Positions 8,327-59,400 of a stretch of 64,000 nt of DNA are shown piece by piece. A model generated the notes under the pieces. The model had not been told where the DNA came from. It saw only the letters and a program-made list of their open reading frames with translations, and did no database searches. Position 1 is the first letter of the stretch; every line of letters begins with the position of its first letter. The DNA is taken from sequence record OQ845958.1, one strand, 5' to 3'. The translations under genes were made by a program, and so were the position numbers. The DNA comes from Escherichia phage pEC-M719-6WT.2.

Positions 8327-8334
8327 AAAAGGGG

Positions 8335-8363
8335 TGTACAAGCCCCTTTGAACGGTGTATCAT
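8335..8363 (+). promoter_or_regulatory. early sigma70-type promoter (-35 TGTACA in hairpin loop, -10 TATCAT)
   Basis: Hairpin AAGGGG-tgtacaag-CCCCTT after nrdH; 17-nt spacer to TATCAT. Confidence 0.4.
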
Positions 8364-8394
8364 TATCCCATCAACTACTGATGAGGAAAACAAA

Positions 8395-8571
8395 ATGGTT
8401 ATTGAAGATAAAGAAATTAAAGTCAACCAGTATTATTCAATCAACGGCAAAGCTGTTTTAGTAACTGAAATATCTAGCCTGGATGTGTGGTATACCATAA
8501 TTGACCTTGGTATTAAAATGATTTGTGACCGTGGAGTGTTTTGTTCGATAGCTAAGGAAATTAAATTATGA
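8395..8571 (+). CDS. hypothetical small protein
   Basis: 58-aa ORF following promoter and SD-hairpin motif. Confidence 0.35.
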   Translation: MVIEDKEIKVNQYYSINGKAVLVTEISSLDVWYTIIDLGIKMICDRGVFCSIAKEIKL

Positions 8572-21787: not shown

Positions 21788-21817
21788 GTTTACAACGGCA
21801 ATGGATTGCCGTATGAT
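21788..21817 (+). promoter_or_regulatory. early promoter (-35 GTTTAC, -10 TATGAT) with embedded hairpin
   Basis: GTTTAC, 18-nt spacer containing CGGCAA-tgga-TTGCCG, then TATGAT. Confidence 0.4.
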
Positions 21818-21857
21818 TACCTCATCAACTACTGATGAATAACTTAAGGATATTAAA

Positions 21858-22100
21858 ATGGAAACATTAATTGCAGGTACTGTTGTTCTTGGTGCTGGTT
21901 CTTTCTTCCTGGCTGCACTGGCATATTTTCTGCCGTGGATTATCGCGCTACTGCGAGGAACCAAAAGTAATTGCGGAATCTTCTTTGTTAACCTCCTGTT
22001 AGGTTGGACAATGGTCGGATGGTTTATTGCATTTATTTGGGCACTCGTTGCTGAGCGTAAATCAAATGCACATGTAATTATCATCAAGGAAACCAAATGA
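21858..22100 (+). CDS. imm: superinfection-immunity-type membrane protein (Imm-like)
   Basis: 80 aa, two TM helices, LLLGWTMVGWFIAFIWAL motif; sits after gp43 as T4 imm does. Confidence 0.5.
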   Translation: METLIAGTVVLGAGSFFLAALAYFLPWIIALLRGTKSNCGIFFVNLLLGWTMVGWFIAFIWALVAERKSNAHVIIIKETK

Positions 22101-24609: not shown

Positions 24610-26033
24610 AAACTATTTTATCCCAGCTACTCTTTAACAAGGAATATTTTGTTAAAGTCTGGCCATATCTGAATAGCACATATTTTGAAAAGGGTCCAGC
24701 GAAGACCCTTTTTAATACGATTAACGAACACGTAAAAGAATATCAGGCGGTGCCAACTAAGACTGCACTTGATATCGCGCTCGACAGTTCTGACCTTTCT
24801 GAAGTTGAATATGAAGGCACCAAGAAACTCTTAGGAGTCCTTGCTGATACTCCAGAAGACCAGGAATGGTTGGTTAGAGAAACCGAGAAGTATGTACAGA
24901 AGTCTGCGATGTTCAATGCCACATCCCGGATTATCGAAATCCAGAGTAATGCCGAACTTCCGAAAGATAAACGTGATAAACGAATCCCGGATATTGGTGC
25001 TATCCCTGATATCATGCGTGATGCATTATCTATCTGTTTTGACTCTGCACTGGGCCATGACTGGTTAAACGATTACGAAGCTCGATTCCAGACTTATCTG
25101 AACAAATCGAAGAAAGTTCCGTTCCGCATTAATATCCTGAATAAAATCACGAAGGGTGGAGTTGAGTATGGTACAGAAAACGTTTTACTGGCCGGGACCA
25201 ACGTCGGGAAATCTCTAGGACTTTGTTCGTTAGCGGCTGACTATCTTCAGACTGGTCATAACGTTCTTTATATAAGCATGGAAATGGCCGAAGAAGTATG
25301 CGCCAAACGTATTGATGCCAACTTGCTGGATGTGTCTCTGGATGATATTGATGAAGGTCATATATCATGGGCAGAATATAAAGCTAAGATGGAAAAATGG
25401 CGTGCTTCCGGGACTCTTGGGACTCTGAAGATAAAACAATATCCAACTGGTGGTGCTCATGCGGATACCTTCCGCGCGTTGCTGAATGAATACAAACTGA
25501 AGCAAGGGTTTGTGCCGGATGTGATTATTGTCGACTACCTGGCAATCTGTGCAAGCTCAAGACTGAAAACGTTTACCGAAAACAGTTACGGCCTGATTAA
25601 GATGGTTGCAGAAGAACTTCGTGGTCTGGCAGTCGAGAAAAATGTGGTCTTGTGGACTGCAGCGCAGACAACCAGGGGCGCGAACGTTGCAGCCGAGATT
25701 GATATGGCTGACATTGCAGAATCCTTTGGTATTGCTCACACGGCTGACTTTATGTTGGGTGTTGTTGAGACCGAAGAATTCGCTCAAATGGGGCTGCAGT
25801 TAATCAAACAGCTTAAGTCTCGTTATGGTGATAAGAACTACTATAATAAATTCAAGATGGGTGTTAAGAAAGGTAATCAGCGCTGGTATGAGGTTGATGA
25901 TGATTCGGCTCCTAAACAAGGCCCTACGGTTAAAGAAGCCACCGGTGAGATGAATCGCCAGGCTGAAATGAATAGACAAACCAGGGTCAACAGGAGCGAC
26001 CTGGACGACCTTGCTGCTCAAATGAAATTTTAA
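24594..26033 (+). CDS. 41: replicative DNA helicase gp41 (DnaB-like)
   Basis: 479 aa, GTG start, Walker A GTNVGKS, strong match to remembered T4 gp41. Confidence 0.95.
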   Translation: MVEVVETILSQLLFNKEYFVKVWPYLNSTYFEKGPAKTLFNTINEHVKEYQAVPTKTALDIALDSSDLSEVEYEGTKKLLGVLADTPEDQEWLVRETEKYVQKSAMFNATSRIIEIQSNAELPKDKRDKRIPDIGAIPDIMRDALSICFDSALGHDWLNDYEARFQTYLNKSKKVPFRINILNKITKGGVEYGTENVLLAGTNVGKSLGLCSLAADYLQTGHNVLYISMEMAEEVCAKRIDANLLDVSLDDIDEGHISWAEYKAKMEKWRASGTLGTLKIKQYPTGGAHADTFRALLNEYKLKQGFVPDVIIVDYLAICASSRLKTFTENSYGLIKMVAEELRGLAVEKNVVLWTAAQTTRGANVAAEIDMADIAESFGIAHTADFMLGVVETEEFAQMGLQLIKQLKSRYGDKNYYNKFKMGVKKGNQRWYEVDDDSAPKQGPTVKEATGEMNRQAEMNRQTRVNRSDLDDLAAQMKF

Positions 26034-26045
26034 AATATTTAAAAA

Positions 26046-26068
26046 GGGGCTTACAGCCCCTTTTTCTT
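26046..26068 (+). terminator. intrinsic terminator GGGGC-ttaca-GCCCC + TTTTTCTT
   Basis: GC stem plus T-run immediately after gp41 stop. Confidence 0.6.
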
Positions 26069-26078
26069 ATGTTATAAT
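26051..26078 (+). promoter_or_regulatory. early promoter overlapping terminator (-35 TTACAG in loop, extended -10 TGTTATAAT)
   Basis: 17-nt spacing between loop hexamer and TATAAT. Confidence 0.4.
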
Positions 26079-26104
26079 GACTCTATCAACTACTGGAGAA
26101 TAAA

Positions 26105-26422
26105 ATGAAAACCATTGATTGCAAGGCAGAATACAAAGTTTATTATCATGGGTCAAGCTCTAATGCTGGAATCCAAAATATGCTTTGTCCTCCTGATGCA
26201 ACTGGTGTTCTGTCAGAAGTTGGACGTAAGAAAAATTTAGGGCGTGTGTTTTTTACTGAAGATATTGGTTTGGCGCGTATCTATGCAGGAAGAGCAGCTC
26301 GCTCATATGGAGGAGAGCCCCGTCTTTATCGTGTGATTGCACCGGTTGACGTGGTTTGTTTAAATGATACTAAAGGCGCAACAGTTTATCACGCTGCCTG
26401 GGCCTTCTGCGAGGAAATCTAA
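26105..26422 (+). CDS. hypothetical protein with PARP/diphtheria-toxin-like H-G-S motif
   Basis: 105 aa; VYYHGSSSNAGIQNM then GRVFFTED; first ORF of the island after gp41; SD GGAG. Confidence 0.45.
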   Translation: MKTIDCKAEYKVYYHGSSSNAGIQNMLCPPDATGVLSEVGRKKNLGRVFFTEDIGLARIYAGRAARSYGGEPRLYRVIAPVDVVCLNDTKGATVYHAAWAFCEEI

Positions 26423-26626
26423 ATGTATAAATTAGAAAACGTAGTATTTATTGGTTGGTTTGAAAATGGTAATATGTTTACCAAAGAAACCGCGCTGGAT
26501 GTTAGTGACCAAAATATGATTGAATGGGTTACAGTGCAGTATGCAGAAGTGAATAATGCGCTGGTTAAAGCCTTTGTTAATGACAATAAAGTTTTTGAAT
26601 ATGATGCCCGCATTGAGGAAATTTAA
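26423..26626 (+). CDS. Dmd-like small protein (tentative)
   Basis: 67-aa ORF in the gp41-gp61 island where T4 has 61.5/dmd; similarity recalled from memory only. Confidence 0.4.
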   Translation: MYKLENVVFIGWFENGNMFTKETALDVSDQNMIEWVTVQYAEVNNALVKAFVNDNKVFEYDARIEEI

Positions 26627-26866
26627 ATGAATATCACATTAATGAAACCTACCCCTAGTTCTTTTTGGAATAAATCTTTTGGTAAGCATAATATGTTTAT
26701 CCAACGCACCGTAAGCAGCTGGGAACTAGTTCTTTCAGTCGGCCACAATGATTATGAACAAGAATACGTAGAGTTCTTCGAATTTCCTGTGAAACCTACC
26801 AAGCGTCAGATTCGTCAGACAAAACGCAAATTCCGCAAAATTTATCTGGAAGATGCATTAAAATAG
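26627..26866 (+). CDS. hypothetical basic protein
   Basis: 79-aa ORF. Confidence 0.4.
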   Translation: MNITLMKPTPSSFWNKSFGKHNMFIQRTVSSWELVLSVGHNDYEQEYVEFFEFPVKPTKRQIRQTKRKFRKIYLEDALK

Positions 26867-26895
26867 TGTACAACAAAGGGATAATGCTGTATATT
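26867..26895 (+). promoter_or_regulatory. early promoter (-35 TGTACA, -10 TATATT) with hairpin GGGATAAT/ATTATCCC
   Basis: 17-nt spacer; 8-bp stem encloses -10. Confidence 0.4.
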
Positions 26896-26923
26896 ATCCC
26901 TATCAACTACTGAGGAGATTGAA

Positions 26924-27217
26924 ATGAAAAAGTTATTAATCGCGGCAATTCTTACCGTAGCATCATGTGGTACAGCTCCAGTTACTGCTGGACTTGATAA
27001 AGACCTTTGTGAGTGGTCTATGACTGCTGACCAGACTGATGTTGAACATCAGATTTATGCTGATATTATGAACATAACTAAACGTGACCGCCCTGATATG
27101 GTTAAAGAAGTATCTGACAAATTGACTTCTGGTGACGTTATGCAGTATAACTATGTTCTGTATTGCGATGCTTCATTTGACAATAGCAAAATTGTTCAAT
27201 GGGTTACAGGTGAATAA
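26924..27217 (+). CDS. sp: Spackle-like periplasmic protein
   Basis: 97 aa with signal peptide MKKLLIAAILTVASC; size and position (61.3-like) fit T4 spackle. Confidence 0.55.
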   Translation: MKKLLIAAILTVASCGTAPVTAGLDKDLCEWSMTADQTDVEHQIYADIMNITKRDRPDMVKEVSDKLTSGDVMQYNYVLYCDASFDNSKIVQWVTGE

Positions 27218-32587: not shown

Positions 32588-33148
32588 ATGAACATCATCA
32601 AATCTGATACCGAACCCAACCAGTTAAAATTTAGTGAAATGGAGATAGCTTCATTATTTGAATGCCGTACATCAAAGGTTGATAAGACCTTGCATTCAAA
32701 TGTCAACTCAATCATCAAGTCAAGGTTGTCTATACCCGATACAGTCTTGTGGCGCGGGGTAACCCAGCAAGAGATTGATTTATTAGATGAAGCAAAAGAA
32801 TCAATGCAACCTTTTGAATTTGGACGGGTAACCTCCTTTACAGAAGACTATGGTATTGCCAGGGATTTTGCTGCAATGGAATATGTGACAAGGACTATCG
32901 TCAGATTGAATCAGACCAAAGCTTTTTGTTACCATGATGCGATGCGCAAAATCGCACTTGATGTTCCACTTGAATTCTTCAATACAGCTTCTGGTTCCGC
33001 CCAGGCAGCTACATTAAGGCGTGAAGAATACATGGACATGATTGATTCTGAGCTTGAATGGTTTGTTCCAGTTGACCAGAAATTCGTGGTAGTTGATGCT
33101 GGATTTATTGATGATTATTATGTTCTTGACTGTGTACAAGAGCAATAA
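32588..33148 (+). CDS. mono-ADP-ribosyltransferase, ModA/ModB family
   Basis: R-S-E ART signature: LWRG, VTSFTED, ELEW; tandem with next ORF. Confidence 0.6.
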   Translation: MNIIKSDTEPNQLKFSEMEIASLFECRTSKVDKTLHSNVNSIIKSRLSIPDTVLWRGVTQQEIDLLDEAKESMQPFEFGRVTSFTEDYGIARDFAAMEYVTRTIVRLNQTKAFCYHDAMRKIALDVPLEFFNTASGSAQAATLRREEYMDMIDSELEWFVPVDQKFVVVDAGFIDDYYVLDCVQEQ

Positions 33149-33192
33149 GACACGTTAAGATGTTCCTATCAACTACTGATGAGGATAATAAA

Positions 33193-33807
33193 ATGCTGTA
33201 CACTGATGACGTTTTGAATGGAATTATTAACACTGCCGCTTCTAGTGAGTCTTTTCGTAACCAATGTCAAGCGGAGATTGATGCTCTTTATACAGATAAT
33301 GAGCAATCAGTACTCTGGCAGTGTATGGAAAATAAACCTGACCTGATTCAAGAAGACTTGTCCAGGATTATCCGCAACAATCTGAATACTGCACCGCCGG
33401 CAGCATTGTTCCGTGGTATATCAAAGAAAACCATGGAATACCTGGAAGATTTAAGATATGTTGGTGCAACAATTGAATTCAATCGTGTAATGAGTTTTTC
33501 CAGGGACTGGCAGGTTGCAAGAAATTTCGCATCATACAGTTTCTATGGAACAAGGAACATTTTCTGTATAAACAATGCACCATATGCGTATAACTATCAG
33601 GAAGCAATCTTCAAAATGATTTGTGGTGCTCCTCCTGAAGAGTTCAATGGTGCATATCCAGAAGCAACCAGGAAGTCAAACTTGCACCTGGTTAATGATG
33701 AAGATGAGTTTATGTTTCCCGCTGGGACTACGCTCCGCGTAGACTTGATTGAAACACACCCATTGAATAACCTGTATACTGTTTGGCATTTAACTGTTTT
33801 GAACTAA
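33193..33807 (+). CDS. mono-ADP-ribosyltransferase, ModA/ModB family
   Basis: ALFRG, MSFSRD, EDEFMFP motifs; paralogue of preceding ORF. Confidence 0.6.
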   Translation: MLYTDDVLNGIINTAASSESFRNQCQAEIDALYTDNEQSVLWQCMENKPDLIQEDLSRIIRNNLNTAPPAALFRGISKKTMEYLEDLRYVGATIEFNRVMSFSRDWQVARNFASYSFYGTRNIFCINNAPYAYNYQEAIFKMICGAPPEEFNGAYPEATRKSNLHLVNDEDEFMFPAGTTLRVDLIETHPLNNLYTVWHLTVLN

Positions 33808-33859: not shown

Positions 33860-33912
33860 AAAAGTAGTGTACATAAAAGATGAATAGTATATAATGATTC
33901 CGTACTGAGTTA
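33860..33912 (+). promoter_or_regulatory. early promoter cassette (A-tract, -35 TGTACA, -10 TATAAT, conserved downstream GATTCCGTACTGAGTTA)
   Basis: One of three copies of the AAAAAGTAGTGTACA...ATAATGATTCC(A/G)TACTGAGTTA cassette. Confidence 0.5.
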
Positions 33913-37225: not shown

Positions 37226-37254
37226 TGTACAAGGCCAATGGAAAGAGACATAAT
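37226..37254 (+). promoter_or_regulatory. early promoter (-35 TGTACA, -10 CATAAT)
   Basis: AAAAGTAGTGTACA, 17-nt spacer, CATAAT, then SD-hairpin motif. Confidence 0.45.
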
Positions 37255-37285
37255 CATCTCATCAACTACTGATGAGGATAACAAA

Positions 37286-37543
37286 ATGATTACTTCTTTT
37301 GAAATTGGCCAACAATATGAAATGTCTGCTCTTCAAGCTGCTGAAGCAGGTCTGACTGAAGCGTTTGAATGTGCATTTACAAATATTCGTGGTAAAATCT
37401 TTACTGTCAATAAAATTGCGGTATATGATAAAGAAACAGACATGAACAAAGGCATCTACTTGAACGTGTCAAACGCAAAAGGCCGTCGTGAAATTATGGT
37501 TGTACAACCTAACCAACTGGCGATGTTCAATAAGGTTACATAA
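37286..37543 (+). CDS. hypothetical protein
   Basis: 85-aa ORF from ATG after SD GAGGA. Confidence 0.45.
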   Translation: MITSFEIGQQYEMSALQAAEAGLTEAFECAFTNIRGKIFTVNKIAVYDKETDMNKGIYLNVSNAKGRREIMVVQPNQLAMFNKVT

Positions 37544-38300: not shown

Positions 38301-38345
38301 AAGTGTACAAACTCTTGGGGTCAGAGTATAATGACCCCACTGGAG
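38301..38345 (+). repeat. promoter/stem-loop cassette copy A
   Basis: AGTGTACAAACTCTTGGGGTCAGAGTATAATGACCCCACTGGAG; 44/45 identical to copy at 49511. Confidence 0.7.
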
Positions 38346-47806: not shown

Positions 47807-47991
47807 CCAAATACTGGAGAATAAAATGAAACCTGCTCAATATGCAATGACTTTATACCTTGAAGTTAATGGCGATATTACTGAATTTTTTAAATTAATG
47901 CAACAGCGTGGAAAAAGTTTTGCAGTTACTGAGCGTCAATTTTACGCATGTCGCAAAAATACATACAATCGTTATGCATGAGGAAAATAAA

Positions 47992-48349: not shown

Positions 48350-48377
48350 TGTACATCTCCAGTGGTTGTAGTATAAT
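48350..48377 (+). promoter_or_regulatory. early promoter (-35 TGTACA, -10 TATAAT) within hairpin ATCTCCAGT/ACTGGAGAT
   Basis: 9-bp stem pairs the post -35 sequence with the SD region. Confidence 0.45.
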
Positions 48378-48530
48378 GAACCTATCAACTACTGGAGATG
48401 ATTATGAAAAAGTTACTTAAAGCCATTTGGAACATGTTTGTACTGTTTGTTGTCCTGAGCATTTTCCCAATTGTTTTTATGATTGACCATGTGCGTGTTT
48501 ACTTTAACTATTTCTTTTGAGGATAATATT

Positions 48531-49513: not shown

Positions 49514-49555
49514 TGTACAAACTCTTGGGGTCAGAGTATAATGACCCCACTGGAG
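49511..49555 (+). repeat. promoter/stem-loop cassette copy B
   Basis: TAGTGTACAAACTCTTGGGGTCAGAGTATAATGACCCCACTGGAG; drives ndd. Confidence 0.7.
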
Positions 49556-56487: not shown

Positions 56488-59400
56488 TTATAATAATGAT
56501 TTAATTAATGCCTTCAACTCAGCAATTTCAGATTTCAATTCCTTGATTTCGTCAGTATGCTCGTTGATAGTAGCAGTATTTAAACCGATAATACCGTTAT
56601 AGTTCAAACGAAGTAAGCCAGTCTCTTTATCTTCAGTCACAAGTTCAGGCAATACCTCTTGAACTTCCTGGGCAATTAAACCGGCAGACGGTTTAACTTC
56701 ATCTGTGACAGAGTTTTTAAGCAGATAAGTATAACCACCTAAGAGTTTAGATTTCTCTTGGGCATTCTCGATAAGCTTAATTTCCGACTTACAACGAATA
56801 TCGGAACGAATATAAACGTCGTTAACATCAATGTTATCACGAACATACATACCTGCATTACAGTGTAAGTTAACACCACCGAATGTCTGAGCAAGTCCGG
56901 CTCGAATACTGAATACACCTTGCCCGTTAGCATACATGTTGTATATGCCATCGCTTTCCCAGACCAATCCGGTGTCATTGTCACCAATAGCAATACACGG
57001 CGTAGTCCAGGCGGGTTCAACACCTACACCCATACCTGCCCATCCTGAAACAATTCTTCCCGGGGAAGTAAACTGCCCGTTGGCCAAAAATTGATAAACC
57101 GCTGCAGGATGTCCTTGTTCTGGTGTATTTTCAGCTGAACGAACAATTATACAACCGGTGGCCCAGGCTGCGGTACCTGAACGTAAAGTACCTAGCTCTA
57201 CGGAGGACGTGTATCCAAACCCTGTAGAAGAACTTCGGCCTTTAACAATCGGGTAATAAACGTTACCATTCAGGTCGCCGTGTTCTACAAATAAAGGAGC
57301 CTCAAGTGCGAATTGTCCGCTAATAGCGCCTGGATTTGTAGCAACCCATCTTGTTCCATTAATCCACAGGCGGTTTTCACTCATTTGAGCTAAATTAAAT
57401 GATTTAGGACTAAATGAAATTACTCCATTATCACTCAAATCTAGACCGGTTGTTGTTTTGTAGTTATAAAAAGATACCGTATCACTTTCACCGCCTTTAC
57501 CAACAAACCAGCTATTAGCACCAGCGACTTCTGAACGGATATGAGAACTATTATTGGCATTTGGGGCTTTAATCAATAAAGCATCATCCGCAGCGGCAAT
57601 AGTCAATTTTCCAGTCATCGTGTCGCCTTCTTTAGCCACACGGGAGGCAATAGCATCATGGATGTTGGTTATATCACCGGCAGAGGTAAATACTTTCCAA
57701 ATATCAGAGAAGATGTTACCATTGCGGGCAATAGTAGCTTCACCGCCACCAACCTGCACGTTATCCGGGAAGTTAACTGTACCGTCAGCATTAAATCTTG
57801 AGGTATGGCCCTGGGTCCCGTCTTCTTTTAAATGGTGTAAAACAAAAGTACCTGAATTAATTTCAGTACCTAAAGACCAAACAGCTTTTCCTTGTAAGAA
57901 TTTCTGCTTAACAATAGGATAATATTTGCTTACAGCGTCATCATCAATTTCCTGAAAAATAGGAGCGGCTTGTGAATATTGAATATCATAACCGCCTGCA
58001 CCAGCACCATGACCACCAAATTTAATAAAACCATTTGCTGCAAAAGTGGTATGGGATAAATCTAAGTCAGGAATAACCACCTTACCTGTATCTAAAGCTA
58101 AACTAAATGGACGAAGGGGTCCGATATCACCGTTCTGTCCTTCGCCAAAAGCAGTAGGAATAATATGAAGACTTCCTTCTGAACGGCGGAAAATAGCACC
58201 GTAATCGTTATTCCAGATGCGGAGCCCATTAACGGCATTTGTAGTAATTTCACCTAATGTATGGACCGCTCTATCAACCCGAATATCTTTTTTAACAATA
58301 AGATTTTCATTAATAGTTTGCTGGCCATTTAATACGGCCTCAATGGTATTATCTGAATTACGCTGAATATATTGCATCCAGCTAATGGCATCAGAAATTT
58401 CCATAATGTTTTTACGGATACCTCCGCTTGGATCAACAAACGTATTACCCCAAACTTTAATATCCATATTATCAACCGAGCTGTATCCTGTTGTGTTGCC
58501 TCTAAACAAAAGAGTCGAAGCGTTGTTGCGGCCATCAATATTAACTGAACCACCAACAACATCAATATTACCAGGAGTAACTAACAAACCGCCAGCGGTG
58601 TTAACGTTTGTAGTGCCCTTACCACGGAAATAGTGGTGATAATTACCGCCTTGATAATACCCTAAAAGAGTTTGACCGTCACCGTACGCGTTATTATCAT
58701 GGTAAGTAACAACAGTGGCTAATGCGTAGTTTTCTGCCGGTGGCGTTGTCATAAGAACTCCGTCCGGAGAATAGCCCATAACCATTTTTCTAAGGCTTTG
58801 CGTTTCTTCTGGTCCGTAGATGAAAGTTCTCGTGCCGTTGTTTACTGTATGGAAATATCCATCCTGATGCCATTTTAACCCGGTGTCATTATCTCCAAGA
58901 GCAATTGAAGCTGTTCCTAATTCAGAATATCCTTTAGAGCCACCTGGAAGACCTACAGAAATAGAATGACCGGCTTTCAATCCACCTGACCATGTAAATG
59001 ACCAAAGATAAGCGTCCAATCCATCTCCAGCATACCAGGTTAACCCGTCATTATCTTTAACTTCATGGAATACACCAGCACCTACGGCATTTCGCATAAC
59101 ACGAAGGTGGTTAATAGCTGTTTCGCTTTCAGACAATGGGCTATTATCAGCCATTGAATAGATATCATAATCGCCGGCCTTCTTCCCGTTTGTAATAACT
59201 TTATCGGTCAAAATTTGTGGGGACGAAATAGATTTCCATGCTGATACTTCAGGTGAAGTGAACAAACCATTGCCTGAAAATGCATAAGTGCTTTCGCTTG
59301 CAGTAGAATAATCTTGTACGCGAATATTAACTACTTGGTTGGTTGCTCCTGCGTTATTAGGAGAAAAGATAATACCACGTTCACGGTCATTGCCATCAAA

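Follow-up and report, generated by a model that had tools for sequence, protein, structure and literature searches.

The early promoters of phage T4 are described in reviews as carrying extra regions of consensus, and those of RB69, RB49 and 44RR prefer C at positions -3 to -1 (Nolan et al.). In T4-like genomes, early promoters also occur in repeated cassettes (PeSLs) that combine a stem-loop, an early promoter, a Shine-Dalgarno sequence (SD) and an ATG; PeSLs mediate modular shuffling and form mini-circles, and their mapped crossovers fall in the interval from the -10 hexamer to the ATG (Arbiol et al., 2010; Comeau et al., 2014). RegB, together with S1, targets an 11-nucleotide (nt) single-stranded site (in T4, GGAGAAUAAAA; consensus GGAGRAYARAA), whatever the sequence upstream of GGAG; GGAU is cut when it precedes a strict A-rich tract, and GGAA is poorly cut (Durand et al., 2006). 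Secondary structure shields RNA from RegB. In T4 genes e, soc, 49 and I-TevI a hairpin masks the initiation region, and a promoter inside its 5' arm releases translation. For the T5 N25 promoter, positions +1 to +20 strongly modulate productive initiation. Here we analyze a short element, ATCAACTACTG, that is repeated in front of early genes in a 64,000-nt stretch of DNA from Escherichia phage pEC-M719-6WT.2 (OQ845958.1; the whole stretch is called the window below). An earlier note on this DNA had read the element as a hairpin in the 5' untranslated region (5'-UTR) that occludes the SD of at least seven early genes. We find instead that it is very probably a start-anchored part of early-promoter cassettes.

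Over the 4 kb around the motif site, the DNA shares 98% identity with three phages: Escherichia phage EAWsc9, Yersinia phage vB_YenM_P8 and Escherichia phage ECML-359. The last of these is classified in the genus Gaprivervirus (Tevenvirinae, Straboviridae), and the window is the early region of a Gaprivervirus, that is, T4-like, phage. It contains seven exact copies of ATCAACTACTG, all on the + strand and each followed by an SD and an ATG (Table 1). Allowing at most one mismatch, eight matches are found against 1.1 expected, a number reached in 0 of 100 shuffles; the 20-mer TCATCAACTACTGATGAGGA, with at most three mismatches, has four matches against 0 expected. The repetition upstream of start codons at seven sites, as the earlier note had it, is thereby borne out, and both the long and the variant forms of the motif lie where they had been placed: positions 37258-37278 read CTCATCAACTACTGATGAGGA and the variant ATCAACTACTGGAG is exact at 26085 and 48384.

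The complete genome of the near-identical relative vB_YenM_P8 (171 kb, assembled from four stretches) carries the motif at 13 promoters, exact in 12 cases and with one mismatch in the other (ATCAACTACGG); each of these copies is on the + strand and follows a -10 hexamer at a distance of 6 nt. On both strands of this genome no exact ATCAACTACTG was found away from promoters, and there are just two further 11-mers with one mismatch, neither at a promoter. The motif is confined to transcription starts in this genome and is absent before operon-internal genes, which argues against a general translational enhancer. An exact 14-mer scan of IMG/VR returned mostly lone, scattered matches in unrelated contigs, as by chance, and was uninformative.

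Each window copy is preceded, in fixed register, by a sigma70-type promoter with a -35 hexamer TGTACA, TTTACA or CTTACA, a spacer of 16-17 nt and a -10 hexamer of the TAnnnT type, and exactly 6 nt, mostly pyrimidine, separate the -10 hexamer from the A of ATCAAC (7/7 copies). Such a -35/-10 arrangement stands at all seven copies and at 0.17% of window positions (p ~3e-20). This arrangement, that of T4-type early promoters (-35 of the GTTTAC/TTGACA type and -10 TAnnnT, 16-18 nt apart), is present at 7/7 copies in the window and 13/13 in vB_YenM_P8. The 12 nt upstream of the -35 are A-rich (UP-like) in five of the seven, for example ttaaaaaagggg and gataaaaagtag; the tract at 21789 is T-rich (gatttttaagtg) and a UP-like tract is absent at 33133. 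The full architecture thus reads: A-rich tract, -35 (G)TGTACA or TTTACA, 16-17 nt, -10 TAnnnT, a 6-nt pyrimidine-rich discriminator, A(+1)TCAACTACTG, SD and AUG. We call promoters of this kind class A. A generic sigma70 promoter scan listed several of them, and it is non-discriminating by itself (56 sites against 53 expected), so the argument rests on the fixed register and on the coincidence at all seven copies. The co-regulation of early genes through a shared cis element that had been proposed holds in the sense that all copies belong to one early-promoter class.

Table 1. Class A early-promoter cassettes of the window and the hairpin drawn at the originally noted site (window positions; ATG, first base).
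Downstream gene or feature	Span	Strand	-35	-10	Motif	SD	ATG	Remarks
58-amino-acid (aa) open reading frame (ORF)	8335-8397	+	TGTACA 8335-8340	TATCAT 8358-8363	8370-8380	GAGG 8383-8386	8395	-35 inside stem-loop GGGGTGTACAAGCCCC
imm	21789-21860	+	TTTACA 21789-21794	TATGAT 21812-21817	21824-21834	AGGA 21847-21850	21858	SD 12 nt past motif
105-aa ORF upstream of dmd	26041-26107	+	CTTACA 26050-26055	TATAAT 26073-26078	26085-26095		26105	-35 in loop of terminator-like stem-loop 26041-26065; perfect RegB/S1 consensus GGAGAATAAAA 26095-26105
sp (spackle)	26867-26926	+	TGTACA 26867-26872	TATATT 26890-26895	26902-26912	GAGGAG 26912-26917	26924	-10 inside stem AGGGATAAT/ATTATCCCT
ModB-like ADP-ribosyltransferase	33133-33195	+	TGTACA 33133-33138	TAAGAT 33156-33161	33168-33178	GAGGA 33181-33185	33193	GGAU-type RegB/S1-like site 33183-33193
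85-aa ORF upstream of MotB-like gene (originally noted site)	37226-37288	+	TGTACA 37226-37231	CATAAT 37249-37254	37261-37271	GAGGA 37274-37278	37286	discriminator catctc 37255-37260; predicted +1 A37261; GGAU-type RegB/S1-like site 37276-37286
38-aa ORF	48350-48406	+	TGTACA 48350-48355	TATAAT 48372-48377	48384-48394	GGAG 48394-48397	48404	16-nt spacer
Noted hairpin CTCATCA-ACTAC-TGATGAG	37258-37276	+						formable only in read-through RNA from upstream

E. coli RNA polymerase prefers to start at a purine 7-8 nt downstream of the -10 hexamer, after a pyrimidine. On these grounds, the distance from the -10 and the preference for Y(-1)R(+1), we predict that +1 is the A of ATCAAC, which would leave the CTC of the proposed 5' hairpin arm upstream of the transcript. 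We consider it fairly probable that the 11-mer represents the first 11 transcribed bases and 5'-terminal leader of class A early promoters served by the host sigma70 RNA polymerase. NAD capping was considered and rejected, since YYY|ATCA would run counter to the NAD-capping promoter consensus, HRRASWW.

Conservation was assessed in the gene 41 loci from 31 T4-like contigs together with the first 30 kb of T4. In T4 itself, the imm.1 promoter has an exact ATCAACTACTGATACGG at +1 and a promoter at ~6.6 kb an exact ATCAACTACTG at +1, while the sp and motB.2 promoters have near-copies (ATAAACTACTGAGGAG and ATAGCTACTGAGGA, respectively). The +1 motif is also found in Dhakavirus (QL01), Jiaodavirus (PKO111 group) and Carettavirus (phiE142), and its ATCAAC core is present in Muldoonvirus. 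Among 18 distinct orthologous sp promoters, mean pairwise identity is 0.86 in the -35, 0.41 in the spacer, 0.77 in the -10 and 0.43 in the discriminator; past the start it is 0.83 for +1 to +6, 0.55 for +7 to +11 and 0.61 for +12 to +20. The identity at +1 to +6 is like that of the hexamers, and ATCAAC is thus constrained as strongly as the core promoter elements.

The likeness to T4 early promoters extends to the A-rich UP-like tract, the GTTTAC-type -35, the 17-nt spacer, the TAnnnT -10, C or T at -3 to -1 and A at +1, as well as to the early genes that lie downstream (imm, sp, mod, the motB region); the -35 differs in being mostly (G)TGTACA here rather than GTTTAC. The published early-promoter logos that were consulted end at the start site. 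A full-text literature search for the 11-mer gave unrelated papers only, figures not being searchable, and no description of the +1 to +9 element or of leader classes was found in the literature searched. T4-type early-promoter and PeSL cassettes are already known and what is added here is their occurrence in Gaprivervirus; the start-proximal element, conserved in T4 itself, is under-described.

About 45 early promoters are predicted in vB_YenM_P8, and they can be sorted into a few leader classes. Class A (ATCAAC...) accounts for about 16 of them. Class B comprises 12 promoters with a conserved leader of ~35 nt (ATACTGAGTTAMCAAAYAAAACACTGGAGAATAAAATG), class C (ACTGGAG...) four and class D (ACACCAAC...) three. 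Common to all classes is G-A-T-Y-Y-Y|A-T at -6 to +2. The motif always begins 6 nt after the -10 hexamer, except in Dhakavirus imm promoters, where the gap is 7 nt and still inside the range of start-site selection; its distance to the AUG is variable, between 8 and 25 nt. Immediately 5' of GGAG/GAGG initiation regions, the most frequent 4-mer is ACTG (21/182 in vB_YenM_P8), and its position shifts with the leader class: +8 in class A, ~+23 in class B and +1 in class C. From the fixed distance on one side, the variable distance on the other and the shifting ACTG, it follows that the motif is composite: ATCAAC(T) is anchored to the start and ACTG is the preferred 5' flank of an SD module, ACUG-GAG/GAGG.

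Other classes are represented in the window as well. Class B starts are predicted at 33902, 47796 and 51976, where the +1 sequence begins (A/G)TACTGAGTTA; in vB_YenM_P8 the conserved class B leader ends in a perfect RegB/S1 consensus, and as a repeat class B is longer and more striking than the noted motif. Two class C promoters (38304-38345 and 49514-49555) share an identical core of 35 base pairs (bp), TGTACAaactcttggggtcagagTATAATgacccc, with ACTGGAG at +1.

Folding of the leaders from +1 to AUG+30 indicates that they are less structured than dinucleotide shuffles, both for the 44 vB_YenM_P8 early promoters (mean z +0.91, p = 2e-11) and for class A leaders alone (mean z +0.92, p = 4e-5). 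Coding controls taken 150 nt downstream likewise fold more strongly than the leaders (-0.138 vs -0.058 kcal/mol per nt, p = 6e-10). Selection appears to favor open rather than closed leaders.

A tentative functional scheme can be drawn for this start module, whose details we hold to be somewhat less probable than not. The YYY|A context would fix initiation at the A. The G-free, A/C/U-rich start would give a near-unstructured leader, so that the SD would be exposed as it emerges and immediate-early translation could begin. Where GGAG or GGAU and an A-rich tract follow the motif, the open leader would present a single-stranded RegB/S1 site for later inactivation of the mRNA. The initial transcribed sequence would probably tune promoter escape too, because near-consensus phage promoters are escape-limited and sensitive to the initial transcribed sequence. 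It is by analogy with T5 N25, likewise a near-consensus phage promoter for host RNA polymerase and one without sequence similarity to those described here, that we infer an effect of ATCAACTACTG on escape. Finally, the repeated cassettes would supply short homologies for PeSL-type recombination.

Several points weigh against the start-module interpretation. The start at A is deduced from spacing, in this phage and in the T4 copies alike. Weak structure near start codons is general in bacterial and phage genes, so the leader folding result is supportive and not specific. The need for an unstructured leader would by itself leave the exact sequence unexplained, as many G-poor sequences would do, and the other promoter classes in the same genome carry different leaders. 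Conservation at the level of the hexamers hints at a sequence-specific recognition that this interpretation does not name.

One alternative is that the copies are kept identical by, or for, recombination: mobile cassettes of the PeSL type would have the 11-mer as their core of homology, and gene conversion and shuffling would preserve it, with no role in expression. The cassettes do resemble PeSLs. They are composite modules in regions rich in small ORFs, they are repeated and close with the SD and initiation codon of the ORF that follows, their stem-loops lie between the -35 and -10 or over the -10, and they are associated with insertions and deletions (indels). Stem-loops adjoin or overlap five of the seven window promoters (8335, 21789, 26050, where it is called a terminator, 26867 and 48350), and none is evident at the 33133 or 37226 promoters. 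PeSLs differ in having been defined in RB49/phi1, T4/PST and KVP40/nt-1, not in Gaprivervirus, and by a definition that stresses stem-loop and promoter, not a conserved initial transcribed sequence. In other Gaprivervirus genomes, a 424-bp insertion (a class B promoter and a small ORF) follows gene 41 and directly precedes the 26050 class A promoter (window 26033-26050), and a second non-homologous segment, window 26605-26866, ends at the sp promoter. Judged from these alignments, both variable segments would be indels bounded by promoter cassettes, as the PeSL model has it, and the mapped PeSL crossovers between -10 and ATG would also suit recombination through this block. Within one genome, however, the -10 hexamers, discriminators and spacers differ between copies while the 11-mer is identical, so that conversion tracts would need to be ~11 bp long. 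The motif is moreover kept at orthologous promoters across genera where the flanks are at ~41-43% identity, which points to purifying selection on the sequence itself. Recombinational homogenization alone cannot explain the 11-mer in view of these two observations, and we regard this alternative as unlikely.

Some further features of the stem-loops were recorded. The terminator-like stem-loop AAAAAGGGGCTTACAGCCCCTTTTT at 26041-26065 lies directly 3' of gene 41 with the -35 of the next promoter in its loop, a terminator/promoter overlap, and GGGGTGTACAAGCCCC at 8331-8346 has the same layout of stem-loop and -35. At several promoters, 6-bp inverted repeats of differing sequence flank the -10: GGGGTC/GACCCC at both window class C promoters, GGGACC/GGTCCC at the T4 motB promoter, and GGGAGC/GCTCCC and GGGATA/TATCCC at others. 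The compensatory differences among these repeats support a selected stem-loop around the -10, of the PeSL type that overlaps the -10. A suspected gene replacement behind the 26085 leader in relatives was rejected, as the ORFs proved homologous.

Another alternative takes up what the start module leaves unexplained, the exact sequence, which gives a little room for a specific factor. According to it, ATCAAC(T)AC at +1 to +9 would be a sequence-specific control element found at about one third of early promoters across Straboviridae, T4 included, and a factor of the phage or the host would recognize it, in the promoter DNA or at the 5' end of the emerging RNA. Candidate roles are the shut-off of T4 early promoters, whose mechanism is not understood according to reviews, or control of RNA fate from the 5' end. 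Conservation equal to that of the -35 and -10 hexamers would fit such an element, as would its presence at +1 only and never inside operons. Against it stand the restriction to about one third of the predicted early promoters and the fact that no candidate binding factor was identified. A palindromic operator, ATCA-N5-TGAT, was considered and rejected: this phage and its relatives together provide 36 distinct promoter-linked copies, and the palindrome is complete in just 12. A translational enhancer that would act by base-pairing between leader and 16S ribosomal RNA was also rejected: there is no complementary 6-mer, and the -7.2 kcal/mol duplex was equaled or surpassed in strength in 286 of 300 shuffles. 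A scan of the whole window with Rfam 15 gave no match at gathering score. The incomplete palindrome, the missing 16S complementarity and the missing Rfam match all count against a factor, and we give this alternative a low probability, both for the recognition site in general and for the control element across Straboviridae. If it were true, the +1 to +9 element would serve rapid early-promoter shut-off or mark a subset of immediate-early mRNAs, and the occasional inverted copy of the motif in the promoter spacer (see below) would belong to the same switch.

The conserved block could also be the RegB target, with RegB and S1 cutting the GGAG or GGAU of the SD and thereby inactivating early mRNAs; the earlier note had offered a RegB-type GGAG site as one possible basis of co-regulation. 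The pattern GGAKRAYARAA has seven matches in the window against 0.79 expected, all on the + strand (9487, 12314, 26095, 33183, 37276, 47816 and 52009). Those at 26095 (GGAGAATAAAA), 33183 (GGATAATAAAA) and 37276 (GGATAACAAAA) belong to class A leaders and those at 47816 and 52009 to class B leaders, and all five fit the published pattern. RegB is encoded by the near-identical relative vB_YenM_P8, where regB is annotated outside the region of the window. For three of the seven copies, then, the suggestion is reasonable, with a published-type site directly 3' of the motif. The other four lack a good site: 8383 is of the poorly cut GGAA type, 21848 and 26914 match in part and 48394 matches poorly. 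Furthermore, the match sits 3' of the 11-mer and not inside it, the RegB target demands no particular upstream sequence, and the motif is anchored to the promoter, not to the SD. Cleavage of some leaders is plausible, in a lineage that encodes RegB and has leaders predicted to be open, yet it leaves ATCAACTAC unexplained, and RegB as the reason for the conserved block is in our view improbable. The need of RegB for single-stranded RNA also conflicts with an occluded SD, the other half of the earlier proposal.

All seven GGAKRAYARAA matches are candidate RegB cleavage sites in this phage. As to regB itself, the ORF annotated in vB_YenM_P8 at 58615-59112 appears to start too far upstream. T4 RegB has ~153 aa; a predicted early promoter start at 58633, followed by an SD (GGAG) and an ATG at 58654, would give a protein of that size. 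The leader of this gene is strongly complementary to its upstream region (-17.8 kcal/mol, p = 0.005).

The hairpin of the earlier note, in which CTCATCA and TGATGAG pair in the 5'-UTR, hide the SD and control early-gene translation, is the weakest explanation and is very improbable. A 7-bp hairpin of -7.0 kcal/mol can be drawn at 37258-37276, and masking hairpins of a similar kind are used by the T4 genes e, soc, 49 and I-TevI. Its 5' arm, however, spans -3 to +4 around the inferred start, so that both arms are not within the predicted transcript: the -7.0 kcal/mol obtained with the CTC (-3 to +16) becomes -0.6 from +1, with 4 bp left (AUCA/UGAU). For the seven predicted primary transcripts (+1 to AUG+12), folding energies lie between -0.7 and -2.1 kcal/mol, and z against shuffles lies between +0.2 and +1.2. 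As for the pairing across copies, the full TGATGAG is found at 37261 and a partial one at 8370, 21824 and 33168, and it is absent at 26085, 26902 and 48384. Among the 36 promoter-linked copies, the full 7-bp stem is present in three, and individual pairs such as +1:+13 and -2:+15 in 12 each. In an ungapped alignment, 68.3% of cells are paired, against 67.5% with the 3' letters shuffled; 133 of 500 shuffles reached as high a value, and the covariation score does not stand out. Variation is confined to the presumed 3' partner, with an invariant 5' arm and loop, the opposite of what a conserved helix would show. With a stem that straddles the predicted +1, few full stems, no covariation and unstructured leaders, a conserved hairpin occluding the SD is not supported.

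Read-through RNA from upstream does include the 5' arm and can fold more stably, and in its predicted folds the SD region is paired at several copies. Of 44 promoters, five show significant complementarity between the 45 nt upstream and the leader; among the 16 of class A there is one, the 48384 copy, and a general masking hairpin between promoter region and leader was rejected as significant in those 5/44 only. The lower accessibility of read-through RNA, 0.47 against 0.63, is confounded by RNA length and is not relied on. At 48384 the hairpin is far longer, with its 5' arm in the promoter spacer: positions 48354-48371 (CATCTCCAGTGGTTGTAG) are an inverted copy of 48382-48399 (CTATCAACTACTGGAGAT), so that read-through RNA can form a helix of ~17 bp with the -10 hexamer enclosed and the SD buried (-25.5 kcal/mol for the fold of the 75-nt read-through RNA). 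The T4 promoter at ~6.6 kb (6.58-6.61 kb) has the same layout, ATCAGTAGTTGAT pairing with ATCAACTACTGAT, and Carettavirus phiE142 (locus L156, 11915-11965) has an inverted spacer copy of the motif of 14 nt. Of 49 distinct class A promoters, three thus have a perfect inverted copy (10-14 nt) of the +1 motif in the spacer, and shuffling the spacers gives p = 0.005 for each. These three promoters belong to three genera and precede non-orthologous genes, and their hairpin encloses the -10 and is not followed by a U-tract. As in T4 e, soc, 49 and I-TevI, the promoter sits inside the hairpin, here with the +1 motif as the 3' arm, and the hairpin is possible in read-through RNA alone, promoter-derived RNA being without the 5' arm. 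In contrast to these genes, in which the internal promoter is late and the helix is conserved for the gene, the promoter here is early and the genes are non-orthologous. According to the predicted folds, the inverted-copy hairpin may mask the initiation region in read-through RNA; the arrangement is a minority feature.

By the vB_YenM_P8 annotation, early and replication genes of the T4 type occupy the + strand of the window, in the order gp45, gp43, imm, uvsX, 41, dmd, 61, mod genes, srd, dda, dexA, motB-like genes, 39, rIIA/B, ndd, 52 and motA; the 3' end of the window has tail-fibre genes on the - strand. Every motif copy shares with the early genes the + strand, that is, the early direction of transcription. 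Orthologues of T4 early proteins encoded downstream of motif copies include Imm (51% identity), Sp (65%) and the ModB-like ADP-ribosyltransferase (36%). In the mechanical ORF list, the ModB-like ORF (33160) and the 85-aa ORF (37238) are extended to ATGs inside or before the promoter and leader; the SD-preceded starts at 33193 and 37286 match the vB_YenM_P8 annotation, unlike the starts in the ORF list.

Taken as a very probable start-anchored part of early-promoter cassettes, the supposed translational hairpin is reassigned to the transcription-start module of T4-type early promoters. ATCAAC is a start-anchored hexamer conserved like the -35 and -10 from T4 to Carettavirus. The known picture of T4 early gene expression is not overturned. 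The leader classes could improve the annotation of promoters and operons in T4-like genomes, and T4 itself offers a setting in which to ask whether the element affects initiation or escape, affects translation, or serves as a site for binding.

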